A stretch of 64,000 nt of DNA from a virus, in IMG/VR virus record IMGVR_UViG_3300030339_000025. One strand, written 5' to 3'. The notes beneath the pieces were generated by a model. That model worked only from the letters and a program-made list of their open reading frames with translations, did no database searches and had not been told where the DNA came from. The number at the start of each line of letters is the position of its first letter. Position 1 is the stretch's first letter. Below are positions 3,831-44,984 of the stretch, piece after piece. A program made the translations under genes and the position numbers.

Positions 3831-4238
3831 TTAGTTTAGATCCCAACAAAGTTCTGTCATAAATCTGTGATTATCTGGATATTCAGAAATTTCCTTATCA
3901 GCTGCATCTAAAAACATTTTTAGATCATTATTTTTTAGGCATAGTTGGTCATAATGATTTAATTTAGCAATATGAATTATATAATCATAATCTTCATCTC
4001 TTAAGTGCCCTTTTAACGGTATAATTCTACCTACACAACTTTCCCAATGAATATTTTTACCATCAAAAGTAATATAATACCAATCTTCACCATCATCACC
4101 AATGGCTATTAATCTTTCAGTTTTAAAAAATGCATCAGTCATAATATGTTGACCTTTTAATCTGTTAAATTCTTCTAAAATTATTTTAAGATTACCATCT
4201 GGATTTTGTAGATGCTCTTCCCATTCTTGTTTGTTCAT
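3831..4238 (-). CDS. hypothetical protein
   Basis: 135-aa ORF downstream of gmd. Confidence 0.3.
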   Translation of the reverse strand: MNKQEWEEHLQNPDGNLKIILEEFNRLKGQHIMTDAFFKTERLIAIGDDGEDWYYITFDGKNIHWESCVGRIIPLKGHLRDEDYDYIIHIAKLNHYDQLCLKNNDLKMFLDAADKEISEYPDNHRFMTELCWDLN

Positions 4239-4248
4239 AATAAAAATT

Positions 4249-5247
4249 TTAATTATTTAAATCGTATTCCATCATAATTTTAACCAATTCTTTAAATTTA
4301 ACTTTTGATTCCCAGCCTAAAACATTTTTTGCTTTTGTTGAGTTTCCTAAAAGTAAATCTACTTCTGATGGTCTGAAGTATTTAGAATCTATTTTAATTA
4401 CAGTTTTACCTGTTTTTTTATCTATTCCTATTTCATCATTACCAGAGCCTTTCCATTCAATTTCAACATGAATATGCTTAGAAGCTTCTTCAATAAATTC
4501 CCTATTTGTGTGTCCTTCTCCTGTTGCAATAACAAAATCATCTGGCTCTGAATGTTCTAAAATTTTTATCATGGCATCACAATATTCTGGTGCATATCCC
4601 CAATCTCTTGAACTATCAATATTTCCTAAATGAATAGGCTCTCCTGTTTTTGTCCATTTAACTAAACCTTGAGTTATTTTTTTTGTAACAAAATTACCAC
4701 CCCGTCTTTCTGATTCATGATTAAATAATATTCCATTTGAAATAAACATATTATAAGAATCTCTATAATTTTTAGAAATCCAAAATGAATATAATTTTGC
4801 AACGCCATACGGTGATCTAGGATGAAAAGGTGTAGATTCCGTTTGTGGTATTTCTTGAACTTTTCCAAATAATTCTGATGTTGTAGCATTATAAACTCTA
4901 CATTCTGGACAATGCTTTTTAACAGCTTCTAAAATCATTAAAGTACCTAATCCATCAGTTTGAGCTGTGTATAAAGGCAAAAAGAATGATATTTGTACGT
5001 GACTTTGAGCTGCTAAATTGTAAATTCTATCCGGTTTTATTTTGTTAATTATTTCATCTATACTTAATGGATCAGTTAAATCTCCATAATGCAAATTTAG
5101 TTTATCAAATATGTGATCTATTCTACTGGTATTAAATGAGCTTGATCTTCTTATAACTCCATGAACTTCATTTCCTTGTTCTAATAATTTTTCCGCTAAA
5201 TAGCTCCCATCTTGACCTGTCACTCCTGTTATTAATATTTTTTTCAT
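4249..5247 (-). CDS. gmd: GDP-mannose 4,6-dehydratase
   Basis: N-terminal ILITGVTGQDGSYLAEKLL Rossmann motif and near full-length similarity to Gmd. Confidence 0.9.
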   Translation of the reverse strand: MKKILITGVTGQDGSYLAEKLLEQGNEVHGVIRRSSSFNTSRIDHIFDKLNLHYGDLTDPLSIDEIINKIKPDRIYNLAAQSHVQISFFLPLYTAQTDGLGTLMILEAVKKHCPECRVYNATTSELFGKVQEIPQTESTPFHPRSPYGVAKLYSFWISKNYRDSYNMFISNGILFNHESERRGGNFVTKKITQGLVKWTKTGEPIHLGNIDSSRDWGYAPEYCDAMIKILEHSEPDDFVIATGEGHTNREFIEEASKHIHVEIEWKGSGNDEIGIDKKTGKTVIKIDSKYFRPSEVDLLLGNSTKAKNVLGWESKVKFKELVKIMMEYDLNN

Positions 5248-5254
5248 TTATTTT

Positions 5255-6184
5255 TTATTTTAATGTACTTAGATAATTTTTATAAGTTTCTATTATGCCT
5301 TCTTTTAATTCTATTGTATGAAACCACCCTAATGAATGTATTTTAGATACATCTAATAATTTTTTTGGAGTTCCATCAGGTTTAGAAGAATCAAAAAATA
5401 TGTCACCTTCAAACCCTATATATTTTTTCATTAGAAATGCTAATTCCTTTATTGATAAATCTGTACCAGAACCAACATTTATTATTTCACTATCATTATA
5501 ATTTTCCATTAAAAATATACAAGCATCAGCTAGATCATCAACATGTAAAAATTCTCTATAAGGCGAGCCTGTTCCCCAAAGTATTATATATTTATCACCT
5601 CTAATTTTAGCTTCATGAATTTTCCTTATTAATGCTGGAAATACATGTGAATTTTCTAAATGGTAAGAATCGTTTATTCCATATAGATTTGTTGGCATTA
5701 CAGAAATATAATTAGTATTATATTGTTTATTATATGATTGACACATTTTAATGCCAGCAATCTTTGCAATTGAATATGCATCATTTGTTTCTTCTAAATA
5801 GCCAGATAATAAGTATTCTTCTTTAATTGGTTGAGTACAATTTTTAGGATAAATACAACTTGATCCTAAAAACAATAATTTTTTTATATTAAACTTATAA
5901 CAAGCGTTTATTACATTTGCTTCAACCATTAAATTTTGATAAATAAATTCGGCTGGATAAAGATTATTTGCCATAATTCCTCCAACTTTAGCAGCAGCTA
6001 AAAATACATACTCTGGTTTTTCATTTTTAAAAAAATTATAAGTTTTTTTTTGATTTGTGAGATCAACCTCTTTATGACTTACAGTAATTATATTTGTGTA
6101 TCCCTGATTTAATAATTCTCTTAATATTGCACTACCGACCATTCCATTATGACCAGCTACAAAAATTTTACTATTTAATTCCAT
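5255..6184 (-). CDS. fcl: GDP-L-fucose synthase (GDP-4-keto-6-deoxymannose 3,5-epimerase/4-reductase)
   Basis: IFVAGHNGMVGSAI..., LAAAKVGGI, LFLGSSCIYPK, SVMPTNLYG, KPDGTPRKLLDVSK — nearly colinear with enterobacterial Fcl. Confidence 0.85.
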   Translation of the reverse strand: MELNSKIFVAGHNGMVGSAILRELLNQGYTNIITVSHKEVDLTNQKKTYNFFKNEKPEYVFLAAAKVGGIMANNLYPAEFIYQNLMVEANVINACYKFNIKKLLFLGSSCIYPKNCTQPIKEEYLLSGYLEETNDAYSIAKIAGIKMCQSYNKQYNTNYISVMPTNLYGINDSYHLENSHVFPALIRKIHEAKIRGDKYIILWGTGSPYREFLHVDDLADACIFLMENYNDSEIINVGSGTDLSIKELAFLMKKYIGFEGDIFFDSSKPDGTPKKLLDVSKIHSLGWFHTIELKEGIIETYKNYLSTLK

Positions 6185-6196
6185 ATTTAATTTCTT

Positions 6197-6541
6197 TTAT
6201 TTGTGTCCTTTATAAAGTTTTACAGAGTCTTCAATTAGTGATTTTCCTTCTATAATTGATTTTTCCATCATTCTATTAATAGCCTCTACATATTTTGGCC
6301 TTTTTTGTTTAAAACAAATGTCAATTTTTCTTTTTAAGTCTGCAATTTCTATATCTGATGTTGATGATCCAATTGCATCTTCTAAATACCACATTCTACA
6401 ATGTAATATAGATAATTTTTCTATAACTTCACCAATATTATCAGTCTCAATAATATCTGACGGCATATCTACTTTTATTGATTTATTTAATGTATTATTA
6501 ATTGTTTCTTTAATAATATCTTCTATTCGTTCTCCTATCAT
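6197..6541 (-). CDS. hypothetical protein in glycan operon
   Basis: 114-aa ORF between fcl and DegT-like gene. Confidence 0.3.
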   Translation of the reverse strand: MIGERIEDIIKETINNTLNKSIKVDMPSDIIETDNIGEVIEKLSILHCRMWYLEDAIGSSTSDIEIADLKRKIDICFKQKRPKYVEAINRMMEKSIIEGKSLIEDSVKLYKGHK

Positions 6542-6542
6542 G

Positions 6543-7697
6543 TTACATATTTTTATTTATTATATCACAAATATACTCTACTTCTTTTAGACCTATATCT
6601 GGATTATTTGGTACATATAGACCATATTTATCTACTATATCTGCAAAGTTAAAAGATTGCTTTCCATATATTTTTATCCAATAAGGTTGATTTCCAATAG
6701 ATCCACAGATTAATGGTCTACAATCAACTCCACCTTTATTTAATTCTTCTGCAATTTTTTTTCTATTTGGATGAATTATAGGATAAGCAAAATTTGAAAT
6801 GTATGTATTTGGAAGATCAGTTATCTTCCAGTAATCATTTTTAATTAATGCATTATAATAGTAATAATTATATTGTCTTATATTTACAATTTTATCAACT
6901 TTATCTATTTGATTTATACCTATGAATGCCTGCAAATCAGTTGATCTTAGATTAAATCCAGGATAATAGAATGTATATAAATCTTTAAATTCATCTATTT
7001 CAAATCCTTTTTTTAATTTTGATTTAAACGAATCATCTAAATCCCTATTCCATCCGTGAGCCCTAATAGATTTTAAAATGTTATATAATTCATAGTCATC
7101 TGTTGTGATCATTCCGCCTTCTATTGTTGATAAATGATGGCCAAAATAGAATGAAAATGAACTCATTAAACCAAATGATCCAGTTTTTATTCCATTATAA
7201 GTTGAACCAATACTTTCACAAGAATCTTCTAACAAAATAATATTATTTTGATCACATAATTCTATTATTTCGTTCATTTTATTTGGAAATCCTAGCACAT
7301 GAACCAATATTACAACAGAAGGATTGTATTCTTTGATTAATCTTTTTAAATCATTAATATCTAAACCAAGTGTTTCTTTATCACATTCACAAAGAATAGG
7401 CGTTAGTCCAAATTGAATAATTGGAGTTACTGTTGTTGTCCATGATACTGCTGGTACTATAATATTATTATTTTTCAATTTACCAGAAATTAATAAACTA
7501 TAAATCATAGCAAGATTTGCTGATGAACCAGAATTAACATATACTGAATATTTTCTATTTTGATATTTAGAAAATTTTTCTTCAAATTCTATAGTAAGTT
7601 TATTCTTGGTAAGAATTGGATTTGTTTTTAACCATTCTATTAAAAGATTAATATCATTAGCATCAATAGTATCCTTAACTAAAGTTATTCGATTCAT
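6543..7697 (-). CDS. DegT/DnrJ/EryC1-family PLP/PMP enzyme, His-variant (ColD/E1-like sugar 3-dehydratase candidate)
   Basis: DegT-family fold signature; position of the usual PLP-lysine reads FSFYFGHHLSTIEGG (HH instead of K), the hallmark of GDP-4-keto-6-deoxymannose 3-dehydratase ColD / AscC. Confidence 0.65.
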   Translation of the reverse strand: MNRITLVKDTIDANDINLLIEWLKTNPILTKNKLTIEFEEKFSKYQNRKYSVYVNSGSSANLAMIYSLLISGKLKNNNIIVPAVSWTTTVTPIIQFGLTPILCECDKETLGLDINDLKRLIKEYNPSVVILVHVLGFPNKMNEIIELCDQNNIILLEDSCESIGSTYNGIKTGSFGLMSSFSFYFGHHLSTIEGGMITTDDYELYNILKSIRAHGWNRDLDDSFKSKLKKGFEIDEFKDLYTFYYPGFNLRSTDLQAFIGINQIDKVDKIVNIRQYNYYYYNALIKNDYWKITDLPNTYISNFAYPIIHPNRKKIAEELNKGGVDCRPLICGSIGNQPYWIKIYGKQSFNFADIVDKYGLYVPNNPDIGLKEVEYICDIINKNM

Positions 7698-8463
7698 TTC
7701 TTGTCTTAATTTTTTCTATCTCAGAGATAGTATCTTCATATAGATTATTATATAGAATTTGTTTAGATTTTAAGTAAAAAATATGTTCATTTGAAGTAAT
7801 ATTTTCTTTATAATCTTCGGTTACAAATTCATCATATTTCATATTAAAATGTGAATATAAAGTTCTAATAAAATCATTAACAAAAATTAATCTACCTGAA
7901 CCAATTATATTATCTGAAGTGGCTTTTATAGATTGATCTACAATAAATTTAGGATGTAATAATTCTCTATAAAAATAAGTATTACCAATCGTTATTTTCT
8001 TTTCATTAATAATGGAATCAAAAATTTTAGAAAATAAAAACCCTTCTTTCCGATAAATAGAATTAAAATTAAAAGGATGAAGAATTATAATATTTGAAAA
8101 TAATTTACTTATTATATTAATTAACAATCTTTTAGAATCAATATAATCTGTAGATCTGTAATCGTAAGGTGTACTTATATCAATAGCACCATCATAATTA
8201 TTCCATAGTTCACTTGTACCGTATATTATAATATTATTTGATGTCTTACTAAAATGCCTTATTATATTAATAATATAATCTACATTAGTATCTAAAAATA
8301 ATTGTTTATTATTTTGTATAAATGTTCTTTGTTCTGCTAAGCAAATATAAACTCTATCATATCTTTTATTTGTAAATTGAATATTCCTTGACGATATTTT
8401 TTCATAATTATCTGGAAAATAATATGATAATTGTGATGTGTTACCTATTACTAAATTTTTCAT
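7675..8463 (-). CDS. hypothetical protein, possible Rossmann-fold sugar-modifying enzyme
   Basis: N-terminal LVIGNTSQLS weak dinucleotide-binding-like motif; position in glycan operon. Confidence 0.25.
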   Translation of the reverse strand: MKNLVIGNTSQLSYYFPDNYEKISSRNIQFTNKRYDRVYICLAEQRTFIQNNKQLFLDTNVDYIINIIRHFSKTSNNIIIYGTSELWNNYDGAIDISTPYDYRSTDYIDSKRLLINIISKLFSNIIILHPFNFNSIYRKEGFLFSKIFDSIINEKKITIGNTYFYRELLHPKFIVDQSIKATSDNIIGSGRLIFVNDFIRTLYSHFNMKYDEFVTEDYKENITSNEHIFYLKSKQILYNNLYEDTISEIEKIKTRNESNNFS

Positions 8464-8480
8464 TTTTATTTAATTTTTAT

Positions 8481-9641
8481 TTATAATATTATTTCATGTA
8501 TAGTTTCATTAAAATAACTAAATTTTAATTTTACTTTACTTTCATCTACAATTATTCTATTTATAATAAAAAAATAATTTACGTTTTTTGCTATATGAGG
8601 ATATAATGCACCATATGATATATCAAAATTGCCATCATTATTTAAATCTATATAAGAATTAATGGTAATATTATATAAATCTTTATAACATTGAAAATTA
8701 ACTTGGTTATTTGTTCTTAATATATTTAATTCTTTAATATATTTTTTATTAAAAAATAAATTATATTTTTTAATAATTTCATCATTAATAATATCAAATA
8801 TATTATCACTATCATTATTAGTAATTAATATTCTGTCAGATTTACTAAATTCAGAGTAAAAAGCTATAATATAACTTGATGTTATTGCAATAAATGTTTT
8901 ATTAAAATCGTTGAAATTATGTTTTGTTAATGTATAACAATATGGACCAGATGCTCTACCAATTATTATATTACAAAACGTTGATAAATAAGATATTTCA
9001 TTCAAATCTGGTAAATTACAATTTATAAGATTGTTAGTAAATAAAATATTATCTTTTACTATATCTATTTTTTTAGTTAATATAAAATCAATATTTGGAT
9101 ATATATCTGATAATTTGTTAATTATAGAATCAAGTAAAATATTTGATTGAGCTGACAACACATCACCATTGCAAATTAGAATTTTAAATTTTTCATTATT
9201 TTTAATATATTTATCTACATTTTCTATTTCGAATTTTGAATAATCTATTTCTGGAATGTAAGAATTTTTTTCATTTAATTGTATAGTGAGTTTATTGTAA
9301 ATAAAAGAATAATATTTATAATATGCATCAAGTAAGGATTTATATGCTAACCATTCATTATCTTTTAATGCGAAATAATAAAGAATATTTGTTCTCATAA
9401 AGTGAATGTTTATATAAACATCTTGATTTATCTTATAATATGTTTGATCTATAAAACAATTTTCATTTAATTTTCCAAATTTAAGATTTTGTATATCAGA
9501 TAATAATTTTGACGATGATTTTTTTTCTAATATATAATATTCATCAAAATCAGTTTTATATATTATATCTTTCATAAATTCTCTATAATAATGTAAATCA
9601 CCATTGTGACAATTGAAATTATTAAAATAAAGTATTTTCAT
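8481..9641 (-). CDS. hypothetical protein in glycan operon
   Basis: 386-aa ORF, Asn/Ile/Tyr-rich. Confidence 0.3.
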   Translation of the reverse strand: MKILYFNNFNCHNGDLHYYREFMKDIIYKTDFDEYYILEKKSSSKLLSDIQNLKFGKLNENCFIDQTYYKINQDVYINIHFMRTNILYYFALKDNEWLAYKSLLDAYYKYYSFIYNKLTIQLNEKNSYIPEIDYSKFEIENVDKYIKNNEKFKILICNGDVLSAQSNILLDSIINKLSDIYPNIDFILTKKIDIVKDNILFTNNLINCNLPDLNEISYLSTFCNIIIGRASGPYCYTLTKHNFNDFNKTFIAITSSYIIAFYSEFSKSDRILITNNDSDNIFDIINDEIIKKYNLFFNKKYIKELNILRTNNQVNFQCYKDLYNITINSYIDLNNDGNFDISYGALYPHIAKNVNYFFIINRIIVDESKVKLKFSYFNETIHEIIL

Positions 9642-10842
9642 TTATATTTAATGTTTTTAATATAGATTTATAAACTTGATCTGGCGTTGGATGGCATTCA
9701 TACGTTAATTTATTTAAATAACAAATACCAGATTTTAATATTTGAGTACTATTGGTTTGATCAATTGATATTTTTGGATTTGCTAGGCATTCAGCTTGAC
9801 ATATACCTCTAACATAACTTAAATTATAATTTTCTATTCCTTTCCTTTTTCTATAATAACTTGTGTCCCAAGATGTTGACAATTCTGTAATATGATTATC
9901 TAAATTACAAAGTGATAATATATATAATCCATTATTCATAGTTACAAATGTTTTACTTTTATTTATTATATGATAAGCTTGTGAAATTGTATTTTGACAA
10001 GGATTATTTAATAAATTTAATCCATTTTTAATTTGAATATTAGAAAATTTTTTTGTTAGATTAGAATCTAAATATGTTTCTTTTCCTATTGCAACTATTG
10101 GAATATGCTCTTGTATTAATTCTATAAATTTTTGCCAATTGTTGTGACCCCAAGTTCTTTCAGGTTCTGTTTCAGATGGATTTATACAAATAAAATTTTC
10201 AGGTAAATTTTTAATATTCTCAAAAGGATCTGGATAAAATTCCATATCAAGTTCATTTGATTTTAATTGAAATCCACAATTATATGCACAAATTTGTTTA
10301 TGATCTATCAATCTCCAATTTGTATTCATAAGATTAAATAAGTGATGTATATCAAAATTAGTATCAAATGAATCTAATAATTGATTTAAATTATTATTTA
10401 TTTGTATAATTTTCTCAATATATGGATTATTAATAAATGCTGATGATATATAGGTTAATATTATAATCTTTTGATTATATATTTCTGACATTTTTTTTAT
10501 TGTTGGCGTTGCTGCTAAATTATCACCAATACCAACTTCTGAATGTAAAACTAAAACTTGCTTTTTTATTTTTTGATTATAAATAGTTTTAAAATTAAAA
10601 AATTGATCCTTAATTATATTATTGTTATATATAATCTCAACCTTTAACCCCTTTAATTCACTTAATTGTGTTGTTGAATACCATAATTCATTATGATCAA
10701 AAAAAGATAATGTACTATATAATAATATTGTACTATTATTATAAGAATTCCAATCATATAAATTAATTTTAGCTTTTAAAGTATAATCACAAGAGATATA
10801 TGTTTTGTTTTCATCTAAATTACATCTTACATTAAAATTCAT
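9622..10842 (-). CDS. glycosyltransferase, GT9 (heptosyltransferase)-like
   Basis: VLVLHSEVGIGDNLAATPTIKK resembles GT9 N-terminal GD...TP motif; weak. Confidence 0.35.
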   Translation of the reverse strand: MNFNVRCNLDENKTYISCDYTLKAKINLYDWNSYNNSTILLYSTLSFFDHNELWYSTTQLSELKGLKVEIIYNNNIIKDQFFNFKTIYNQKIKKQVLVLHSEVGIGDNLAATPTIKKMSEIYNQKIIILTYISSAFINNPYIEKIIQINNNLNQLLDSFDTNFDIHHLFNLMNTNWRLIDHKQICAYNCGFQLKSNELDMEFYPDPFENIKNLPENFICINPSETEPERTWGHNNWQKFIELIQEHIPIVAIGKETYLDSNLTKKFSNIQIKNGLNLLNNPCQNTISQAYHIINKSKTFVTMNNGLYILSLCNLDNHITELSTSWDTSYYRKRKGIENYNLSYVRGICQAECLANPKISIDQTNSTQILKSGICYLNKLTYECHPTPDQVYKSILKTLNINENTLF

Positions 10843-10846
10843 TTAT

Positions 10847-11598
10847 TTAATTTTTTATATTTTTTAATGCATCATTATAAAATTCTTCAACTCTCTCACT
10901 ACCAATATAACAACACTTTTTGTTTATGCAAGCTTTTGCCGTTGTGGAGATGCCAGAAAATGGATCATATATTAAAGATTTTTCAGGAAAATAGATATGA
11001 ATTAATTTTTCAACTAATTCACTTGAGTATGTTGCTTTTAGTTTAGTTTTAAAGCCATCATTATTTTTAGCTTCTATTAAATTAGTATAGTTTTTATAGA
11101 AATTTTGACCTGTTTTTTCATTAATTGTACTGATTTCTTTATTTGTTATAAAATCATGTAAATGGTTTTTTTTAACAATAATATATATTAATTCGCAAAT
11201 TCTACTCAATTTTGTTGGAGAGGTCTGGAATGGTATACTGGTTTTTTTTTTTTCCAGCTTATCACATCTGCTAGTGTTAAGTTGGTTTGTTTATGTACCT
11301 CTGAGATAAGTAGTTGAGGCAATATTGGATTTTCATTGTGATATGAAATATTGTAACATATCACACCATCATCTTTTAAGATCCTTTCAAATTCTTTAAA
11401 TTCGTTTAATCTTATTGATAAATATTCATCTTCTGGTAAGCCATCTGTTTCAGAATATCCATTATTATAATAACAATCATTTCTTTTACTACATATTGAA
11501 TAAGGTGGAGATGTTATAATTCCAGATATAAATTTATCTGACATTCTATTCATGGTAGTTAAATTATCTTCATTATAAATTTTATTTATTTCTATCAT
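10847..11598 (-). pseudogene. beta-class DNA (N6A/N4C) methyltransferase split in two ORFs at a 12-nt poly(A) tract
   Basis: ORF 11206..11598 carries motif IV SPPY. ORF 10847..11209 carries motif I DPFSGISTT, has a TTG start, and is 1 nt out of frame. A12/T12 homopolymer at 11242-11253 lies just upstream of the frame break. Confidence 0.55.
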
Positions 11599-12974: not shown

Positions 12975-15900
12975 TTAATTAAATAGGTATTTAATACCAA
13001 ACATCATTTGCCATCTTGAACTAATACCTGTTGAATTTTGGTATGGTTGAGTAAATGGAGTTGTTCCTGTCTGGAATGGAAGCGAAAATGAAGGAGTTTT
13101 TCCATCTGCAGCGAGACCTTCATATTTTAATATGTTAGTAGCTGTAGGAATTTTAACAACACCCCAATCTCTGTTAATTAAGTTTCCAGCATTAATCATA
13201 TCCACTGAAAACTTAAGTGTGTGTGTCTTAAATTTAATATCTTGTGTAATATTTAAATCTAAGTGACTAAAGTATGGCGCTACAGTTGCATTTCTTTTAG
13301 AGTATTGACCCCTGTGAGTATTAAGATAGGTTGAATTAGAAATAAAAGCGTCTAATTGTGACCAAATTTGTGCAGATGTTCTTGTGTCAGTAACACCTGT
13401 TGTAATTGTACCTAAACCTCCAGAGCCGACTTTAACTAGGTTGATGTCAGCAATTGTTTTTGGAATATACATCAAGTCATTACCTGAATTACCATCACCA
13501 TTTAAGTCACCATTATAAACATATGAATTTACACCGTTATTAGTTAATTCGTAAATTGCTCCAAATGTTGTAGCAAGATATTTTCCTTCATTTAGTTTGT
13601 AAGCGAAGTTGGCAATAAGTCTGTTTGGCTGATAATATGACGCATAACCCAAATTAGCCGCATTAGGATCCTGATTAGAAACAGGTACTGCACTCCATAA
13701 TGACGAGGCTGTTGATCCATATTCTGCGGTGTTCTTGGATACTGAACGTGTGTATGCTATACCATAGGCTAAATTTTCAGTAGTTCTTTGAATTTTTGCA
13801 GTCAAAGTGTAAACATAGCCTTTACTTGAATTACTCATTAAAATTGCATTACCTATATTAGGATTTTCTAAGGTCGCTGTTGGCGTTCCTGCATAATATT
13901 TGTTAGTATTTGCAACCGAAGTTAAGTAACGGGTTCTGTTATCAACACCACCTAATGCAAATCCGTTGGACTCATTTAAATTTATGTTAGAGTAATAAAC
14001 TGCATTAATGTCTTGTGTATAATTGTATTCAGCGCCAATCATCCAGCCATCTTCCAATCTCTTATCAATAGCTAAAGATGACTTCCAAGCTGTTGGATAT
14101 TTAAAGTTGCTAGAAACCAAAGCAGTACTATAAGAAGCATTAGCAGATCCAGCTGTTGGTCTTAAAGCATTAGGATCAACATTAAACGCTGTTTTGTTAG
14201 CTGCATTGGTGAATGAACCAAATTGAATACCATTGTTTGAAGCCTGGTTAGAAATCCAAACGAATGGTGGAGGTCCTGCGAAGATACCAGTACCTCCTCT
14301 GACTTGTAATGTTTTATCACCTTTAGGATTCCAGTTGAAACCTAATCTTGGTGAAACAATAATATTATTCATTGGAGCTTTACCAATGTTATAAGTCGAT
14401 CCATCTTTGAATTTTAATGCATCAAATGTTGGATTATCTGTCATTGACTGTTTGTAGAAGGTTTCATCAAGTCTCAAGCCAAAAGTTAAGGTGAAATCAT
14501 TTGATACTTTCCACTTATCCTGTATGAACTGAGATAATTCTGTTGATCCGGCATTAGCCCAAGGAAATTCACCATTAGGTAAAGCTGAATATTGCAAGTA
14601 GTATGATTTAGCATTTAACTTTCCGTTTTTTGCTGAATTATAAAAGTCTGTCAAGCTATTGAATTGATAAACACCTTGATAACCAGGCGCAAATGCGTTT
14701 TGATATTTTTTAATTGAGTTTTGAGTACCTACTGTGAGTTCATGCGCACCTTTATAATAAGTTAAGATGTCATTTAATTGATAAACGTCTGTATTCAATA
14801 CGTTATTGTAAGTGTACATTTCGTAACCAAAGGTTGTATAAATATTACCATTGTTTAAAATATCAACTAATGGGAAAGTTCCACTACTAGAATGAGGAGA
14901 ACGGAAATCTCTCAATGCAGTATAACCAATTTGTAATTTATTTGATAGCCTATTATTGAAATGAGTATTCAATTCAGCAATAAAAATATTAAAGTTATTA
15001 TTGATTACATAACCACTACCATAGAAAGGCATTGAATAGGTACCTGGCTGCCCACCAGTTGTTTGACCAGAGCCTGGTCTTGAAGTAGATGCAAATTGAT
15101 CGGATGATGATTTTAAGTAGTTGTATTTTAATGTAAAAGTATTCTTACTATTAATGTTCCAGTCTAATTTTGCAGTAATTTTATCAGAATAGGTTTTGAA
15201 AGTATAACCTTGAAAAGCACCTGGATCATATCCAAACTTGGTCTTTAAGAAACTAGATAAAGCTGATAAAGTGTCAGCGTTTGCTTGAGAATAGTTTCCA
15301 CCAGCAGCATGAGATGCGTCTGAAGGCAGCATGGAAGTCGCTGGTGCATCTTGTCTAACTTGTTCTCCACTTACGAAGAAAAATAATTTGTCTTTGATAA
15401 TTGGACCTCCTAAACTAAATCCTTTGATAGAATAATCAAAAGGAGTTTTTACAACTGTTGTTGGACCAACATTGTAACCTAAATAATTTTCATTCCTAGA
15501 ATATTGATAAATAGTTCCTTTGAAAGTATTTGTTCCACTTTTAGTTACGGTGTTAACGCCTGTTCCAGCAAATCCACCTTGCTTAACATCATATGGTGAT
15601 ACGTTAACTTGAATTTGTTCAATAGCTTCTAATGAAATTGGTTGTGCGGATGTTTGTCCACCTAAGATAGATGATAGACCAAATGAGTTATTAAAATTAG
15701 CTCCATCAACTGTCATATTATTATATTGACTACTTCTGCCGCCAATATTCAATCCTTGGGAGGTAGGTTCTAATTTTACAAAATCTTGAATTGAACGATT
15801 TATTGTTGGTAAACGATCAACTTGAGCTCTTGTTATTAACTCCTGAGAACCAGTTCTTGAACTACTAAATGTCTTGTCTTGAACGCCTTTTACAATAACT

Positions 15901-16250
15901 TCTCCTACTTGGATCGCTTCATCAGTAAGTTCAAAATTTTGTTTAAATGTTTGACCTAAATTCAGAAAGATATTGTTTATTTTTTCTGATTTAAGTCCAA
16001 CAAAAGCTGTTGTTAAAGTATATGGCCCACCAATTTTTAAATTTGGTAAGTTATAACGACCATCAGTTCTAGTCGTTGTCATATACTTAGTGCCTGTTGG
16101 AACATGAACTGCCATTACTACAACATCTTGTAATGGCGACTTGCCTTCTAAAATTGTTCCTGAAATTTCAGAAGTGGTTTCTTGTGATTTTGCTATTATT
16201 GAAAACAATATAAGCATTATCACTAACATCACTCTTTTTAATTTTCTCAT
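12975..16250 (-). CDS. TonB-dependent outer-membrane receptor, SusC/RagA-like
   Basis: Signal peptide MRKLKRVMLVIMLILFSIIA. Carboxypeptidase-regulatory-like N-domain, plug and a large beta-barrel. C-terminal ...GIKYLFN aromatic terminus. Confidence 0.8.
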   Translation of the reverse strand: MRKLKRVMLVIMLILFSIIAKSQETTSEISGTILEGKSPLQDVVVMAVHVPTGTKYMTTTRTDGRYNLPNLKIGGPYTLTTAFVGLKSEKINNIFLNLGQTFKQNFELTDEAIQVGEVIVKGVQDKTFSSSRTGSQELITRAQVDRLPTINRSIQDFVKLEPTSQGLNIGGRSSQYNNMTVDGANFNNSFGLSSILGGQTSAQPISLEAIEQIQVNVSPYDVKQGGFAGTGVNTVTKSGTNTFKGTIYQYSRNENYLGYNVGPTTVVKTPFDYSIKGFSLGGPIIKDKLFFFVSGEQVRQDAPATSMLPSDASHAAGGNYSQANADTLSALSSFLKTKFGYDPGAFQGYTFKTYSDKITAKLDWNINSKNTFTLKYNYLKSSSDQFASTSRPGSGQTTGGQPGTYSMPFYGSGYVINNNFNIFIAELNTHFNNRLSNKLQIGYTALRDFRSPHSSSGTFPLVDILNNGNIYTTFGYEMYTYNNVLNTDVYQLNDILTYYKGAHELTVGTQNSIKKYQNAFAPGYQGVYQFNSLTDFYNSAKNGKLNAKSYYLQYSALPNGEFPWANAGSTELSQFIQDKWKVSNDFTLTFGLRLDETFYKQSMTDNPTFDALKFKDGSTYNIGKAPMNNIIVSPRLGFNWNPKGDKTLQVRGGTGIFAGPPPFVWISNQASNNGIQFGSFTNAANKTAFNVDPNALRPTAGSANASYSTALVSSNFKYPTAWKSSLAIDKRLEDGWMIGAEYNYTQDINAVYYSNINLNESNGFALGGVDNRTRYLTSVANTNKYYAGTPTATLENPNIGNAILMSNSSKGYVYTLTAKIQRTTENLAYGIAYTRSVSKNTAEYGSTASSLWSAVPVSNQDPNAANLGYASYYQPNRLIANFAYKLNEGKYLATTFGAIYELTNNGVNSYVYNGDLNGDGNSGNDLMYIPKTIADINLVKVGSGGLGTITTGVTDTRTSAQIWSQLDAFISNSTYLNTHRGQYSKRNATVAPYFSHLDLNITQDIKFKTHTLKFSVDMINAGNLINRDWGVVKIPTATNILKYEGLAADGKTPSFSLPFQTGTTPFTQPYQNSTGISSRWQMMFGIKYLFN

Positions 16251-16924: not shown

Positions 16925-18199
16925 TTAGATATTTTTTATTATTTCAAGTGCTTTATTAGCAGAATTCTTCCAAGAAAATTCAGTTCTAATTAATTCTGAA
17001 TCTTCTAAAGCTTTCTTTTTATATTTCCAATAATTAACATAAACATCTCTCATCACTTTAGACAAATCATCAAAATCTGGTTCATAATAATTTCCTACAC
17101 CATTTGGTATAGGTTTTTCATCTAATATTTTAATTGGATGACCTTTTCCTTTTGCAAATTCTAATTGAGCACTACAGTTAGAATATATTGATGGTGTGCC
17201 ACAAGCCATAGATTCACACAATGGAAGATTCCAGCCTTCTGATCTTGAACAAGATAAAAATACATGACCATTTTTTAAATAATTAACATAATCTTGTCTA
17301 TTTACAAAATGTAAAATTTTTAATCTATTATCTTTAAAATTATAATGATTTAATCTTTCTTCTGTTGTTTTTAAACCATCATTACTATAATCAGCATTAT
17401 CTACTGCTAATATTAAATCAACTGGTTCTTCTGGCTTGAATGTTTTTAGAAATGTTGAAATAATTTCTGTTGTGGCTTTTCTATATTCCCATCTTCCAAA
17501 TAATACAAATTTGAATCTATTATCTTTATACATATCTAAATTATAATTAAAAAAATCTGGATTAAATATAGAATCATCAACAGCTTCAGGAACAATAAAA
17601 ATTTTATCTGTTGGATAACCTTGTTCTATAGCACATTGTTTTTGCCATTTTGATGGACACCAAAATTGATCAAATTTTTTAAGTATTTCAAAGAAAGTGT
17701 TATCATATTTTGTTGATTCCCAAACATTATATGCTATTTTAAATCCAGTATATTTATCAAGGCAATAATAATAATGGTGATTAGTTTCACTTAAAAGTAA
17801 ATCTATTTTTGATAAATTTGAATATTTTGCTTCTTCATTAACTTCATAATCACATAATCCAGATCCATAACTATTTTTTGATCCTTGATTACAATATAAA
17901 GTTTGTATATTTATTAGTTTTCTCTGATAATCAGTAATATATGTTTCTTTTGAGTGAGGATCATTATATCTACCATTTGAGTTAATTGATCCTAGTCCAT
18001 TCCAAGTTTTTCCTACTGTAAAATTTCTAATTTTTAATGGTGTTTTATAACTTAATGCGGTAAAGAAATCTCTAGCGTGTGCATTATAACCTGTTTGACC
18101 AATAAAACTTGTATGCCCTTGTATAAAAAAATCATTCATTTTTATTTTTTTATTTTTATAATTAATCCAAACATTGGAATTGAAAAATTGGATATCCAA
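16925..18199 (-). CDS. glycosyltransferase family 1 (GT4-type)
   Basis: C-terminal SRSEGWNLPLCESMACGTP motif (E-x7-E GT1 signature). Confidence 0.6.
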   Translation of the reverse strand: MDIQFFNSNVWINYKNKKIKMNDFFIQGHTSFIGQTGYNAHARDFFTALSYKTPLKIRNFTVGKTWNGLGSINSNGRYNDPHSKETYITDYQRKLINIQTLYCNQGSKNSYGSGLCDYEVNEEAKYSNLSKIDLLLSETNHHYYYCLDKYTGFKIAYNVWESTKYDNTFFEILKKFDQFWCPSKWQKQCAIEQGYPTDKIFIVPEAVDDSIFNPDFFNYNLDMYKDNRFKFVLFGRWEYRKATTEIISTFLKTFKPEEPVDLILAVDNADYSNDGLKTTEERLNHYNFKDNRLKILHFVNRQDYVNYLKNGHVFLSCSRSEGWNLPLCESMACGTPSIYSNCSAQLEFAKGKGHPIKILDEKPIPNGVGNYYEPDFDDLSKVMRDVYVNYWKYKKKALEDSELIRTEFSWKNSANKALEIIKNI

Positions 18200-20181: not shown

Positions 20182-20637
20182 ATGAAGTATTTAAAAAAAT
20201 ATGAAAATTTTAATAAGACCACTTATTATGAGTTTGATGCTATTAAATTTTATAATGATTTCAAAAAAATATTTCATAATGAAAGAGATAACAATTTTAG
20301 GTCTACTGATTTTTTTAAAAATTTAGACAAGTTAGTACCTAACTGGTTAACAGTTCCATTAGATGATACAGTTGAGAAATTAATTCAAGATATACTTATA
20401 AAAAATAGAAAAGTTGTATTTGTTGGTTTAAATGGTGATTTATATGATGGTAAAGTTACATATGTTAAATTTTTTTATTCGGTTTTTTTTAAAAAAATTA
20501 CTTATTCAATAATATTAGATGAAAAAAATAAGTTTATTGATGTTGATTTTACTAAACCAGTTAAGATATATGGAGAACCAACAGAAATAGAAAATATTGT
20601 TGATTTATATTCAAATACAAATAAATATAATATATGA
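20182..20637 (+). CDS. MKxIKxFE/KYNI-family protein (array 1, member 1)
   Basis: MKYLKKYENF...KYNI; stop fused to next start. Confidence 0.55.
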   Translation: MKYLKKYENFNKTTYYEFDAIKFYNDFKKIFHNERDNNFRSTDFFKNLDKLVPNWLTVPLDDTVEKLIQDILIKNRKVVFVGLNGDLYDGKVTYVKFFYSVFFKKITYSIILDEKNKFIDVDFTKPVKIYGEPTEIENIVDLYSNTNKYNI

Positions 20638-21122
20638 AATATTTAAAAAAATTTGAAATATTTGCTACAAATCCAAATCCAAGATTAGATGATCTTAAAA
20701 AGTTATTAAGTCATTTAGTAGAAATGTTTAAAGAATTAGGATATTATCATTTGCCAAAATATGATGAATTTGAATATGTTAATAATTTTTTTAGTAATAA
20801 AATAGGTTTATTTAGTCATTTAGACCGTGGACATCCTGGACATAATTGCTTTGATATTAATGGTGAGTTTTCTAATTCATTAATATTTTTATCAATTACA
20901 GAAAGAATTGGAAGTACAAATGATGATTTAGCAAATTTTATTCCTGAATATTTTAAAACTATAAAAGGATTAAAATTACATAGTGAAGATAATATGTTTT
21001 TTCAGGTAAATTTTGAAGTTGTTGATAATGTTGATAATATAATAAATAAAATATCAATAGAAGATTTTAAACAAAAATTACAATTAAAAAATATAATATA
21101 TGAAACATATAAAATTATTTGA
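20634..21122 (+). CDS. MKxIKxFE/KYNI-family protein (array 1, member 2)
   Basis: MKYLKKFEIF... Confidence 0.55.
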   Translation: MKYLKKFEIFATNPNPRLDDLKKLLSHLVEMFKELGYYHLPKYDEFEYVNNFFSNKIGLFSHLDRGHPGHNCFDINGEFSNSLIFLSITERIGSTNDDLANFIPEYFKTIKGLKLHSEDNMFFQVNFEVVDNVDNIINKISIEDFKQKLQLKNIIYETYKII

Positions 21123-21363
21123 AAATATAGATGATAAAAAACTTATCATTATGAGAGGTGATGATTGGGAAGGAGTTTATTATAATGGTAAATTATTATA
21201 TCAAGGACATTCTATTCGTTGGGATGAGGTATTAAAAAAATTAGGATATAATATAACGTCTAATTATATTGAAGATGATGATTGGGAGAATCTTAACTGG
21301 TCTTTATCAGAAAATATAGAAGATGTAGAAATGATAATAAATTCTAAAAAATATAATGTATAA
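21100..21363 (+). CDS. MKxIKxFE/KYNI-family protein (array 1, member 3)
   Basis: MKHIKLFENI...KYNV. Confidence 0.55.
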   Translation: MKHIKLFENIDDKKLIIMRGDDWEGVYYNGKLLYQGHSIRWDEVLKKLGYNITSNYIEDDDWENLNWSLSENIEDVEMIINSKKYNV

Positions 21364-21366
21364 AAT

Positions 21367-21672
21367 ATGAGATATATAAAAACATTTGAATTTTTTTCAA
21401 CTGAAACAGGGCAAGCATTAGATTATGAAGAAGGTGATATTGTGATTTGTTCTGATGATAAATACAATCCGACAGGTAAATATTTCGCAATAGATAAAGG
21501 TGATAAATACAAAGTTCTAAAAATATATAAATTGCCAGAAGATAAATTTTTAAAAAAAGATTATATGAGAGTTGATGTTGTAAATTTAGAAACTAATGAA
21601 ATTACAAAGGGTTGGGAGTCAACAAGATTTAAGACGACCCTTGAATTTGATGTTGATAAATATAATTTATAA
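21367..21672 (+). CDS. MKxIKxFE/KYNI-family protein (array 1, member 4)
   Basis: MRYIKTFEFF...KYNL. Confidence 0.55.
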   Translation: MRYIKTFEFFSTETGQALDYEEGDIVICSDDKYNPTGKYFAIDKGDKYKVLKIYKLPEDKFLKKDYMRVDVVNLETNEITKGWESTRFKTTLEFDVDKYNL

Positions 21673-21675
21673 AAT

Positions 21676-21966
21676 ATGAAACATATAAAAAAATTTGAAA
21701 ATGTGTATTCCATAAAAAAAGATAACTTATCTATTTTCAAAAATAAATATAAAGATTTTAAAGAAGGTAAATATGTTAAATTTAATGCTAATATTAAGTT
21801 TAATTTGGATGATTATGATGAGATTTTTAGAATAGATTCAATTTCTGAACCAACTTTGCAAGTCTGGGTAAAGTCACTTGAAACAAATAATCATCATTGG
21901 ATTTTATTAAAAAATTTACGATTATTAACAGAATTAGAATTAAATGCATTAAAATATAATATATAG
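21676..21966 (+). CDS. MKxIKxFE/KYNI-family protein (array 1, member 5)
   Basis: MKHIKKFENV...KYNI. Confidence 0.55.
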   Translation: MKHIKKFENVYSIKKDNLSIFKNKYKDFKEGKYVKFNANIKFNLDDYDEIFRIDSISEPTLQVWVKSLETNNHHWILLKNLRLLTELELNALKYNI

Positions 21967-21969
21967 AAT

Positions 21970-22164
21970 ATGAAACACTTAAAAACATTTGAAAATTTAT
22001 TTCCTGAGATTAATCCAATAGAATTTGTTGCACCTACAAGAGAGCATCCATCATATAAAAATGAAGAAAGAAAGAAAAAAAGAAAAAAAATTGGTGAAAT
22101 TGAGCCAGTTATGATGCCGCCTAATCACACAAAAGATGTTATTTCATTTAAAGGAAAGCCTTAA
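21970..22164 (+). CDS. MKxIKxFE-family protein (array 1, member 6; short, basic tail)
   Basis: MKHLKTFENLF... Confidence 0.45.
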   Translation: MKHLKTFENLFPEINPIEFVAPTREHPSYKNEERKKKRKKIGEIEPVMMPPNHTKDVISFKGKP

Positions 22165-42619: not shown

Positions 42620-42937
42620 ATGAAAATTAAAAGATTTAATGAATCATTAAGCAGACCAAAATATGATCATACTGAAAAATTATTAAAGGTACAAATTAGT
42701 GGTGAATTTTTAGTTCCATTAAGTAAAATAAAAGAAACTGAAGCTTATTATAAAATTATAAATAAAGGCTATAGGCAAGATTATTATTCTGCAATATGGT
42801 ATGGTATAGAAGAATATGCTGCTGAACGCGGTGAAAGTGAATTTTCTTGGATATTAGTTGATGGTAACGGTAATGTTATTGAAGATGAGAAAGAATTTGA
42901 TAAACAAGTAGAAATAATTAAAAAATATAACGTATGA
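42620..42937 (+). CDS. MKxIKxFE/KYNI-family protein (array 3, member 1)
   Basis: MKIKRFNESL...KYNV. Confidence 0.5.
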   Translation: MKIKRFNESLSRPKYDHTEKLLKVQISGEFLVPLSKIKETEAYYKIINKGYRQDYYSAIWYGIEEYAAERGESEFSWILVDGNGNVIEDEKEFDKQVEIIKKYNV

Positions 42938-43416
42938 AATTTATAAAAACATATGAAGGCTATGGTTATAAATGGAAAAATATAGTTGAAAAAAATGACA
43001 AATTATATATTAATTTATATCAATTAGCACGTGAAATGGAATATTCTGCTAATAATGAAAGAGAATTTAAAAAATTAAGAAGAGGACATTATTCTACACC
43101 TTCTGATATAGAAATTATATCAAATCAGGAATGTGAATATAGGAATTTAATTTTTAAGTTATTAATTGACAAAGTTATATCATTTGAAGATGAAAATTCT
43201 AATTCACATTTTGGTATATGTGATAGAATTTCGTTTGAATCAGGGCCAAGCGGATTCGTTAAAGAAATTCAATATACATTTCAATTTGAATATATAAGTA
43301 TAAGAATATATGAAGAAGATGAATGGTATAATGTAGGCGCAGGAAATAAAGATGTTATAGTACATTTAAATATAGATCCTGAAATATATAAAAATAATAT
43401 AAAATTTAATATATGA
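42934..43416 (+). CDS. MKxIKxFE/KYNI-family protein (array 3, member 2)
   Basis: MKFIKTYEGY...KFNI. Confidence 0.5.
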   Translation: MKFIKTYEGYGYKWKNIVEKNDKLYINLYQLAREMEYSANNEREFKKLRRGHYSTPSDIEIISNQECEYRNLIFKLLIDKVISFEDENSNSHFGICDRISFESGPSGFVKEIQYTFQFEYISIRIYEEDEWYNVGAGNKDVIVHLNIDPEIYKNNIKFNI

Positions 43417-44108
43417 TAACTAAATTCGAATTATATAATGAAAGTATAAATTTTAATTTAAAACTTATAACAAGTTTATTTCCAATATTATATAAAAAGG
43501 CAATAAAAAATATTATTAATATACATCAATCATTATCAGAGGATCATATTCTTGAATTTATAAACCATTATATTTATAATAACTATGGTGTAGATTTGCC
43601 TAACTCTAAAGAAATATATAATTATGTTAAATATTTAGTTCATAAAAATTTTATACATAAAAACGATAATATGTCTGAATCATTAATGTCATACACATTT
43701 ACAACTAGTGGAATGACAAGTAAAAAATATTATTTACCAACTACACCTATTGATAGTAGGGATTTATTTATTTATATTAGAACTCTTGATATTATAAAAA
43801 CTAAAAATTTATTAAAACAAGGTGCAGATGTAAATATTCAAGATAAAAATTTTGGAAGGACACCATTAATCAAACTTATATTAGGATATAGTCATAACGC
43901 GGAAAAAATAATTAAAATGATTAAAATATTAGTTAAATATGGTGTAGATTTAGACATTCAGGATTACAACGGATGTACTGCATTAATGGCAGCATCTGGT
44001 GCTAAATATATAGTATCTTATCCAATAATGTATGAATTAATAGAACTTGGTGCAAATTGGAATATTAAAACATTAGATAATAAAGATTTTATAGATATAT
44101 TGATGTAA
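43413..44108 (+). CDS. ankyrin-repeat protein with family-type N-terminus
   Basis: MITKFELYNES N-term; GADVNIQDKNFGRTPL ... GVDLDIQDYNGCTALM ankyrin consensus. Confidence 0.55.
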   Translation: MITKFELYNESINFNLKLITSLFPILYKKAIKNIINIHQSLSEDHILEFINHYIYNNYGVDLPNSKEIYNYVKYLVHKNFIHKNDNMSESLMSYTFTTSGMTSKKYYLPTTPIDSRDLFIYIRTLDIIKTKNLLKQGADVNIQDKNFGRTPLIKLILGYSHNAEKIIKMIKILVKYGVDLDIQDYNGCTALMAASGAKYIVSYPIMYELIELGANWNIKTLDNKDFIDILM

Positions 44109-44184
44109 GTTGATAAATCTATAGTTGAAGAATTGAAAACAAAATATCCAGAAAAATTTAAAAAATATCTAATTAAAAAAGAAA

Positions 44185-44466
44185 TTGATAAATATAATTT
44201 ATGAAATAACCATATGGTTTAAAAAATATAAGTTTATTATGAAAAAAACTAAAACGGAAATTATAAAGAGTGAAAAAATTACAAAAGATATGGCATTATA
44301 TGAATTATCTAATAATGATTTATCTAAAGATGAAATAGATGAATATCTTGAAATAATAACAGCTATTAATGAAGGATTATATGTTTATAACCTTACAACA
44401 ACTAATGGTGAATATTTATTATATGCTAAAGATGAGGCGATTAAAGATACAAAAAAGAAAAAATGA
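44185..44466 (+). CDS. hypothetical protein
   Basis: 93-aa ORF inside array 3. Confidence 0.3.
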   Translation: MINIIYEITIWFKKYKFIMKKTKTEIIKSEKITKDMALYELSNNDLSKDEIDEYLEIITAINEGLYVYNLTTTNGEYLLYAKDEAIKDTKKKK

Positions 44467-44984
44467 TAACAAAATTTAAAATCTTTGAACAAAGTTCAAA
44501 TCTGAATAATCAGATATTTGAAAATGTAAAAAATGATTATATGCTTGGTAAGGATCAATTCTTTATTAATGATGTTATGAAATATTTAGATATTGATGTT
44601 GATACGATGATCATGGATGAAAAAACTGAACTTAAAAGTAAATATAATATAGATGTTATTGATTTTATTAAAGAAATTCTATTAAATAAAACTATTATAT
44701 TTCAAAATGAGAATAGAATTCAAAAAAATCCAATTAGAAAAGGTAAAGTTATTAATGTTAATATTTTTTTTTATAAAGATGATTTTTGGCTTCATGTCAA
44801 TTTAAAAACTCCACAAATTTTAATAGATAAAAAATTTGTGGAGTACCAAGGAACGTTAAATGGTTGTGGTGATTTTTTAATAAAAAATAATAGTATAGTT
44901 ACAATTTATGATTATGATGCTGATAATAAACCATTACATAAATTAGTTAAATTAAAAAAGGAAACTGAAAAATATAATATATGA
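44463..44984 (+). CDS. MKxIKxFE/KYNI-family protein (array 3)
   Basis: MITKFKIFEQ...KYNI. Confidence 0.5.
   Translation: MITKFKIFEQSSNLNNQIFENVKNDYMLGKDQFFINDVMKYLDIDVDTMIMDEKTELKSKYNIDVIDFIKEILLNKTIIFQNENRIQKNPIRKGKVINVNIFFYKDDFWLHVNLKTPQILIDKKFVEYQGTLNGCGDFLIKNNSIVTIYDYDADNKPLHKLVKLKKETEKYNI

Follow-up and report, generated by a model that had tools for sequence, protein, structure and literature searches.

The colitose of the O antigens of Escherichia coli O55 and O111 and of Yersinia pseudotuberculosis VI is made as guanosine diphosphate (GDP)-L-colitose by enzymes of three types, Gmd/ColB, ColD and ColC, whose genes are clustered. A histidine in place of a lysine, together with the lack of a [2Fe-2S] motif, marks ColD apart from E1 and SpnQ (PMC8987622). 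Large T4-like cyanophages (S-SCSM1, S-SSM7, P-SSM2) are known to carry gmd and fcl, along with genes for glycosyltransferases and methyltransferases, as auxiliary cell-wall genes (PMC9602691). The literature searched holds no report of a virus-encoded 3-dehydratase or of a phage colitose-type 3,6-dideoxyhexose branch, and the cyanophage DegT protein was not recognised there as a 3-dehydratase. The subject here is a block of seven co-directional open reading frames (ORFs) in a 64,000-nucleotide (nt) stretch of viral DNA, IMG/VR record IMGVR_UViG_3300030339_000025, the whole of which is called the window. They follow one another closely along the minus strand over positions 4249-10842, with gaps of 1-16 nt or overlaps of 23 nt or less, and encode the same three enzyme types together with four products less easily named (Table 1). 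A first-pass annotation, made from the letters alone, had described a co-directional gmd-fcl-DegT-GT9 block through which a mobile or viral element makes a deoxyhexose-containing glycan; the block is as it described, and that use of it is the one favoured below.

The block is probably an operon-like glycan cassette of a huge phage, in which Gmd, a ColD-type enzyme and two reductases supply a sugar for transfer by GT9-fold proteins, most likely to the host envelope. Gmd would oxidise and dehydrate host GDP-mannose to GDP-4-keto-6-deoxy-D-mannose, from which the ColD-type enzyme would take off the C3 hydroxyl to give GDP-4-keto-3,6-dideoxy-D-mannose, using pyridoxamine 5′-phosphate (PMP), His187 as acid/base and glutamate to regenerate the cofactor. 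The Fcl-type 3,5-epimerase/4-reductase could turn the Gmd product into GDP-L-fucose and the ColD product into GDP-L-colitose. The product of a gene translationally coupled to that for ColD, the short-chain dehydrogenase/reductase (SDR) SDR262, may give a non-epimerised 6-deoxy or 3,6-dideoxy D-sugar. Protein p386, probably with p114, and protein p406 would then transfer the sugar or sugars onto an acceptor, most likely a glycolipid or polysaccharide of the host envelope, which would be altered during infection. Since gmd and fcl are already known from phages, the core of the cassette is a new phage member of a known and mostly conventional pathway; what is possibly new is the coupled short SDR, a GT9-fold transferase invisible to sequence searches and a DUF4254-like partner.

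The predicted 3-dehydratase

The 384-residue product has the DegT fold (PF01041, E=4.7e-66, residues 11-380) and carries the motif FYFGHHLSTIEGG, the first histidine of which is His187. It aligns with His188 of ColD, and the assignment is unambiguous because the PDB holds the ColD mutants 3b8x (H188N) and 2r0t (H188K), which fix the site. Histidine is kept at this position in 127 of 128 aligned relatives, the single lysine-bearing sequence being an outlier at 23% identity. Among solved structures the nearest is that of E. coli ColD (2gms, E=8e-70, 239 bits), as against 139 bits for E1 (3bcx) and 125 bits for perosamine synthase, and the segment with the [2Fe-2S] cysteines of E1, RDCYCAPGCDNTC, is aligned to a gap. 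As the cysteine motif is absent and Gmd is encoded in the same block, the enzyme is by its sequence of the ColD type, which would act on a GDP-sugar without an Fe-S cluster, rather than of the AscC/E1 type. The first-pass annotation had named both ColD and AscC as models for this 3-dehydratase, and the alignment with ColD that it proposed, which places no lysine at the Schiff-base position, upholds the first of the two names and not the second.

Membership of PF01041 and the label 'aminotransferase' given to homologues in public annotations would fit an ordinary enzyme of the GDP-perosamine synthase type, with the block making an amino sugar, and perosamine synthases do come after ColD and E1 among the PDB matches. 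With the Schiff-base lysine replaced by histidine throughout the family, other than in the outlier, and ColD about 115 bits ahead of perosamine synthase, this is hardly credible. A 3-dehydratase of the E1/AscC (RfbH) type, which acts on cytidine diphosphate (CDP)-hexoses in the abequose, tyvelose and ascarylose pathways, is what the Joint Genome Institute name (CDP-6-deoxy-D-xylo-4-hexulose-3-dehydrase) implies, and RfbH is the best NCBIfam match. Its score of 211 bits is far under the cutoff of 423, neither an E3-type reductase nor CDP-glucose genes were found nearby, and in 30 of 40 loci (non-redundant, with at least 3 kb on each flank) a Gmd gene is no more than 10 kb from the ColD-type gene. 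Together with the missing cysteines and the nearer match to ColD, this makes a CDP-hexose enzyme highly improbable. From its genomic linkage to Gmd we infer that the ColD-type enzyme acts on GDP-4-keto-6-deoxy-D-mannose.

The E. coli O55 colD and colC references used in these comparisons were taken by coordinates from NC_013941.1. A blastn search of the block against E. coli genomes found only ordinary gmd-fcl, at 67-69% identity.

Four cysteines of the ColD-type protein (C103, C148, C160 and C331) are at least 97% conserved across the viral family; only C160 is common to E. coli ColD, and none is at an E1 Fe-S position. In one of the related loci, which are designated here by L numbers, the ColD-type gene is interrupted by an intein that combines Intein_splicing with a LAGLIDADG homing endonuclease (L016:10001-12595, ORF of 864 amino acids), and in another Gmd has a LAGLIDADG-containing insertion (L019:12258-14558, 766 amino acids). 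Such inteins and insertions are typical of long-resident, important viral genes.

Table 1. Genes of the block and two neighbours: window coordinates, strand and the matches behind each name
Product	Coordinates	Strand	Matches
Gmd, GDP-mannose 4,6-dehydratase, 332 aa	4249-5247	-	TIGR01472, PF16363
Fcl-type GDP-4-keto-sugar 3,5-epimerase/4-reductase, 309 aa	5255-6184	-	NF047922, PDB Fcl matches
p114, small helical DUF4254-like protein, 114 aa	6197-6541	-	PF14063 sub-threshold
Predicted ColD-type PMP-dependent GDP-4-keto-6-deoxy-D-mannose 3-dehydratase, 384 aa	6543-7697	-	PF01041, His187
SDR262, short GMD/RMD-like extended SDR, 262 aa	7675-8463	-	AF2 model and Foldseek
p386, compact GT9-fold (GT-B) glycosyltransferase-like protein (residues 1-300) with C-terminal beta-sandwich (305-386), 386 aa	8481-9641	-	
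p406, GT9-like glycosyltransferase, 406 aa, with N-terminal extension of ~95 aa and C-terminal Cys4-His cluster	9622-10842	-	
p135, neighbour directly downstream of gmd	3831-4238	-	homologues 54-63% identical
GT4/GT1-type glycosyltransferase, possible further cassette member	16925-18139	-	PF00534, PF13692

Gmd and the Fcl-like enzyme

Gmd passes its equivalog model (TIGR01472, 475.2 bits, cutoff 415; PF16363, E=4e-131), scores 405 bits against human GMD (6gpj/1t2a) and is 50% identical to each of the two gmd copies of E. coli O55. The Fcl-like protein is 12 bits short of its own equivalog cutoff (NF047922, 487.6 bits, cutoff 500), and its top PDB matches are all Fcl, with 370 bits for 8du0 and 368 bits for E. 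coli 1bsv. Its motifs GSSCIYP, AYSIAK (Y..AK) and NSHVFPA (SHV) align with E. coli Fcl, so that the catalytic set, which we take to be S107, C109, Y136, K140 and H179 in the E. coli enzyme, is present. The names that the first-pass annotation had given to these two genes, Gmd and a highly Fcl-like reductase/epimerase, thus stand. Identity is 52% to E. coli Fcl as against 35% to E. coli O55 ColC. Fcl-type relatives (54-58% identity) directly follow the ColD-type gene, 5-18 nt downstream, in seven loci, and for this reason the window enzyme is plausibly the ColC-equivalent, a colitose synthase, despite its greater likeness to Fcl. As predicted from their sequences, Gmd, the ColD-type enzyme and the Fcl-family enzyme between them represent every step of the canonical GDP-L-colitose pathway.

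The substrates could in principle be GDP-heptoses, as for the 3,6-dideoxyheptose capsule of Campylobacter jejuni, in which case GDP-heptose would be what 'Gmd' dehydrates at C4 and C6, as a 4,6-dehydratase, and the GT9-fold proteins would be heptosyltransferases. GT9 is a heptosyltransferase family, the window has a GmhA-like sedoheptulose-7-phosphate isomerase, and heptose-modifying Fcl homologues of C. jejuni (7m13, 7anc) are among the PDB matches of the Fcl-like protein. They score only 283 bits, however, well below true Fcl; Gmd is above the curated gmd cutoff with genuine GMDs as its best solved matches; searches of the window found neither a kinase nor a guanylyltransferase of the HddA/HddC type; and the GmhA-like gene, its product slightly under the model cutoff (TIGR00441, 202 bits, cutoff 209), is 19 kb from the block. 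A heptose pathway is accordingly improbable, and deoxyhexose substrates derived from GDP-mannose are preferred.

The cassette in related loci

The block proteins were used in tblastn searches of 18 loci and then of 80 further ones. The genes for Gmd, ColD, SDR262 and p114, in varying order and in some loci joined by that for p386, are together in L007, L009, L012, L013, L015, L016 and L019 and in many of the 80 metagenome loci, so that the cassette is found on dozens of AT-rich contigs from metagenomes and viruses. High AT content is shared by all 87 related loci, whose median guanine-plus-cytosine (GC) fraction is 0.30, and the relatives are 53-89% identical. Contigs that bear relatives are of 212-501 kb. 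The exact ColD-type protein of the window is encoded on 18 contigs from several samples, the largest of 76.5 kb.

Among public phage genomes, the window ColD-type protein matched 54 Synechococcus phage records. Synechococcus phage ACG-2014f (NC_047714.1, L104:5032-8161) has gmd, fcl and a DegT gene with FSFYFGHH, and in a 642-kb phage (LR756502.1, L105:7005-9104) fcl is followed by a DegT gene with FSFFVAHH. These histidine-type DegT genes are labelled just 'aminotransferase' or are unannotated.

One of the loci, L015:6020-11023 (IMGVR_UViG_3300024256_001036), has 16 in-frame TGA codons and zero in-frame TAA or TAG over six genes. Six of the 14 TGA codons that can be aligned are at a tryptophan of the window proteins, and in this virus TGA appears to be a sense codon, tryptophan-like.

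A short reductase candidate

The SDR262 protein of the window has no Pfam match of its own. Its family is of about 260 residues, many homologues match PF01370 (Epimerase), and against the sequences of solved SDRs the matches are marginal (E=0.02-0.6). The AlphaFold2 (AF2) model, with a predicted local distance difference test (pLDDT) score of 91.8, has a Rossmann-type SDR fold, for which the top Foldseek matches are 4lw8, the GMDs 1n7h and 1rpn and the RMDs 6x3b and 2pk3, with E=1e-11 to 1e-12 for the GMD and RMD structures. The segments T83-S-E85, Y107xxxK111 and S25-R26 are invariant or nearly so in the family (Y107 and K111 invariant, T83 nearly), and with hhalign TSE, YxxxK and NxxS line up with the window Gmd.

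In 37 of 44 loci no more than 110 nt separate SDR262 from ColD. In the 40 loci used for counting partners, ColD has SDR262 only nearby in 16, an Fcl-family gene only in 14, both in eight and neither in two. The two are negatively associated (Fisher p=0.001, odds ratio 0.07), a p-value that is indicative only as related loci are counted as independent. The presence of p114 is independent of either reductase. Strict exclusivity, with SDR262 plus p114 replacing ColC, had been suggested by some ten loci and was discarded in view of the eight that carry both.

The main argument for SDR262 as the terminal 4-ketoreductase is that nearly every ColD-type gene has a reductase partner and that the two kinds tend to substitute for one another. 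It is proposed to be dependent on reduced nicotinamide adenine dinucleotide phosphate (NADPH) and to act on the Gmd product, the ColD product or both. A bolder version is tentative and on present evidence rather unlikely. In it the product of SDR262 would be a GDP-3,6-dideoxy-D-hexose, tyvelose-like or the 4-epimer of such a sugar, that is not among the known GDP-sugars; the GT9-fold protein with its DUF4254-like partner would be a new phage-specific transferase for that donor; and AT-rich huge phages of many environments would share a glycosylation system that had not been recognised before.

Predicted transferases and their probable acceptor

None of the four unassigned ORFs of the block has a match in PHROGs. 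The smallest product, p114, scores 23.4 bits against PF14063 (DUF4254), under the cutoff of 27, and all six of the homologues tested also match DUF4254 below threshold; a PDB sequence search with it gave chance-level hits only. No other member of the cassette is as conserved: its identity is 68-95% in loci where that of ColD is 61-89%. Genes for p114 and p386-like proteins are together in 10 of 11 loci (p=0.003, again with related loci counted as independent), a linkage that suggests a transferase-plus-partner pair. For p386 no sequence match was found in Pfam, PHROGs or the PDB; by structural comparison its predicted fold is GT-B, closest to GT9 structures, and some family members are fused to sugar methyltransferase or GT25 domains.

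The 406-residue protein, p406, has no direct Pfam match at E<0.01. Homologues at 30-45% identity carry PF01075 (Glyco_transf_9), and the best PDB matches of the family profile are WaaF (1psw, E=0.003) followed by WaaC and TibC (to E=0.05), in agreement with its earlier designation as GT9-like. G106, D107, C348, C352, C374 and C383 are invariant in the family and H384 nearly so; the C-terminal cluster to which these cysteines belong (residues 346-385) presumably resembles the iron-finger of TibC. In L007 and L009 p406 is fused behind a Methyltransf_24 domain. For the three ORFs that the first-pass annotation had left as uncharacterised there are now candidate identities, a short GMD/RMD-like SDR, a second GT9-fold transferase and a DUF4254-like protein, and they recur with the ColD-type gene in related loci. 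Gene context suggests that the donor used by the GT9-fold proteins is a GDP-deoxyhexose.

As to the acceptor, remodelling of the host envelope is favoured because the neighbours of the cassette in the window include an outer-membrane protein and GmhA-like, GT2 and GT4 proteins, and because GT9 enzymes act mostly on the core of lipopolysaccharide (LPS). The same sugar pathway might instead serve the phage's own virion, with capsid, tail or fibre proteins as acceptor. Both p386 and p406 have the protein heptosyltransferase TibC among their best structural and profile matches, which keeps protein glycosylation in play, and the invariant Cys4-His cluster of p406 points the same way. The strong conservation of the cassette in a lytic-style huge phage and the inteins in the ColD and Gmd of relatives suggest, moreover, that the genes matter to the phage. 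Against this are the envelope-directed character of the neighbours just mentioned, the LPS-core habit of GT9 and the lack of any structural gene adjoining the cassette; a virion acceptor is the lesser prospect, though one to be taken seriously, and the envelope is retained as the probable destination.

The outer-membrane protein, encoded next to the cassette (12975-16250, minus strand), is a TonB-dependent-receptor-like protein of 1091 residues with a signal peptide, CarboxypepD_reg and Plug domains and a beta-barrel. Local GC is 0.34 as against 0.25 for the window, and the protein is 85% conserved in L009. Of the other carbohydrate-related genes that the first-pass annotation had listed elsewhere in the window, the GT2 protein and the GT4/GT1-type protein are real and GmhA holds at the GmhA-like level given above. 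The 'LpxH-like' phosphoesterase, at 47.5 bits for a cutoff of 134, is secure only as a metallophosphoesterase. Homologues of the GT4/GT1-type gene are upstream of the cassette in L007 and L016 (72-75% identical), and in L009 a 97-residue fragment, 85% identical, is in that position. On the other side, p135 has homologues downstream of Gmd in L007, L009 and L016; it has no family match in Pfam, NCBIfam or PHROG searches.

Identity of the element

The window has a GC fraction of about 0.25 and dense short ORFs. Among its products are DNA methylases (Dam and N6/N4 types), homing endonucleases, some of them GIY-YIG/NUMOD3, a FlgJ-like glucosaminidase, NUDIX enzymes, an RNA ligase and a T4 gp30.3 domain. 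Prevotella Lak phages have a counterpart of the RNA-ligase-like ORF at 58% identity, and matches of other ORFs are to Riemerella phages at 43%. An 803-residue protein with major-vault-protein (MVP) shoulder and repeat domains (30782-33193, minus strand) has its only phage-collection homologues, at 50-53% identity, in the huge phages LR756500, LR756501 and LR756503. LR756501 also has homologues of SDR262 and p386, and the 735-kb huge phage of this group has homologues of SDR262, p386 and the DUF4254-like protein. The largest phage genomes and the Lak phages are in the Mahaphage clade, for which Bacteroidetes hosts are predicted (Al-Shayeb 2020, PMC7162821). We take the window to be a piece of the genome of a huge AT-rich phage related to Lak/Mahaphage genomes, and because of that relationship the host is probably Gram-negative and one of the Bacteroidota. 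The phages with MVP-like homologues have genomes of 462 kb and 735 kb, and an 81%-identical copy of the MVP-like gene is near the cassette in L016.

The enzyme types of the block are all typical of bacterial O-antigen loci, and two relatives were binned in bacterial metagenome-assembled genomes (MAGs), of Dojkabacteria and Cellvibrionaceae. Both would be expected if the contig were bacterial and the block simply a host O-antigen or capsule locus, or if it had been captured from a host very recently. The flanks, however, are phage-like, with arrays of small paralogous ORFs and genes for homing endonucleases, an RNA ligase, Dam and gp30.3; when window ORFs are compared with the phage collection, their nearest homologues belong to huge phages and phages of Bacteroidota; and relatives of the block are on contigs as AT-rich as the window itself. 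A p114 profile scan of one genome for each of 185,579 species gave a single true locus, a 106-kb contig of 23% GC with the same cassette, and this is the very contig binned as 'Cellvibrionaceae'. An Aquimarina locus (L020) from that scan was set aside as a 13-residue chance match inside an unrelated gene. Bacterial origin, an alternative that the first-pass annotation had itself raised, is thus very improbable. Since the GC of the block (0.19-0.28) matches that of the window, the block is native to the genome and not recently acquired.

The earlier comparison with chloroviruses, whose virions are glycosylated, calls to mind a eukaryotic virus, and this is unlikely given the relationship to Lak/Mahaphage huge phages. 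A eukaryotic giant virus was also considered by way of the mimivirus-type early promoter AAAATTGA, and rejected: 19 were found as against 29 expected, and the homologues favour huge phages of Bacteroidota.

Other observations on the window are as follows. A megablast search of 25 kb against INPHARED gave no match, a tRNA search of the window found none, and a promoter/terminator scan, with 99 sites as against 111 expected, is uninformative at such an AT content. The gene next to p406 in the direction away from gmd (10847-11598), for an N6/N4 DNA methyltransferase, is split into ORFs of 130 and 120 residues at a 12-base poly-T/A run (11242-11253), and the related assembly L001 has a slightly different junction; the run could be an error of assembly, or else a tract subject to phase variation or frameshifting. 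Small paralogous ORFs form three arrays on the plus strand (20182-22164, 34210-37657 and 42620-45490) and make up a multigene family, their products beginning MK(Y/H/R)IK.FE and frequently ending KYNI, KYNV or KFNI. The window further encodes a secreted protein with a cbb3-type cytochrome c domain (50650-51108, minus strand) and a 774-residue RCC1-repeat protein (60285-62609, plus strand).

Weight of the evidence and potential significance

Several points weigh against a phage-encoded colitose-type cassette and need to be kept in mind. The activities of all its members are predicted only. Identity between the ColD-type protein and E. coli O55 ColD is no more than 35%, and the former has Gly186, as do 126 of 128 relatives, where E. 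coli ColD has Ser187. The Fcl-like protein, being closer in sequence to Fcl than to ColC, may make fucose only. SDR262 is without the glycine-rich TGxxGxxG motif, having G7-N-T-S-Q-L-S and a first helix of four residues in its place, and might not bind NADPH. The co-occurrence statistics have the dependence among loci noted above. To our knowledge GT9 enzymes use adenosine diphosphate (ADP)-heptose donors and not GDP-deoxyhexoses. The 64-kb window has no capsid or terminase gene, so its identity as phage rests on accessory genes. The conserved catalytic histidine, the linkage to Gmd and the recurrence of the cassette nevertheless leave it the probable reading.

If the pathway is active, infected cells or the phage particles themselves could come to display a dideoxy sugar that is strongly antigenic and masks receptors, which would bear on serotype conversion, resistance to grazing and the exclusion of superinfecting phages. 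Three unknowns open to experiment also emerge from the cassette: a reductase of the GMD/RMD kind in truncated form, a transferase with a GT9 fold that sequence searches do not see, and the function of DUF4254.

Comparison with known systems

In its clustering of three enzyme types the cassette is like the GDP-L-colitose loci. It differs from them in being phage-encoded, in a ColD at 35% identity with glycine rather than serine before the histidine, and in an epimerase/reductase nearer Fcl (52%) than ColC (35%). The cassette is without manB, manC, wzx and wzy; it adds the short SDR and the DUF4254-like protein, and GT9-fold transferases replace the usual glycosyltransferase families. The closest phage parallel is with the ACG-2014f cyanophages, which share gmd, fcl and the histidine-type DegT with the same FSFYFGHH motif; their DegT is 34% identical, and no homologues of SDR262, p114 or the GT9-fold proteins were found at that locus.

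With the GMD/RMD pair of the GDP-D-rhamnose pathway (Pseudomonas aeruginosa and the RMD of A. thermoaerophilus) SDR262 shares its fold, the Thr/Tyr/Lys set and linkage to Gmd. In contrast to RMD it is some 40-70 residues shorter, has the atypical cofactor motif GNTSQLS and has a 3-dehydratase, not Gmd itself, as the partner to which it is coupled. Compared with the GT9 enzymes WaaC, WaaF and TibC, p386 has no detectable sequence similarity and has an extra beta-sandwich. The genes for both GT9-fold proteins are, unlike those of the GT9 heptosyltransferases, not beside ADP-heptose genes, and because they sit in a GDP-deoxyhexose cassette their donor may differ.

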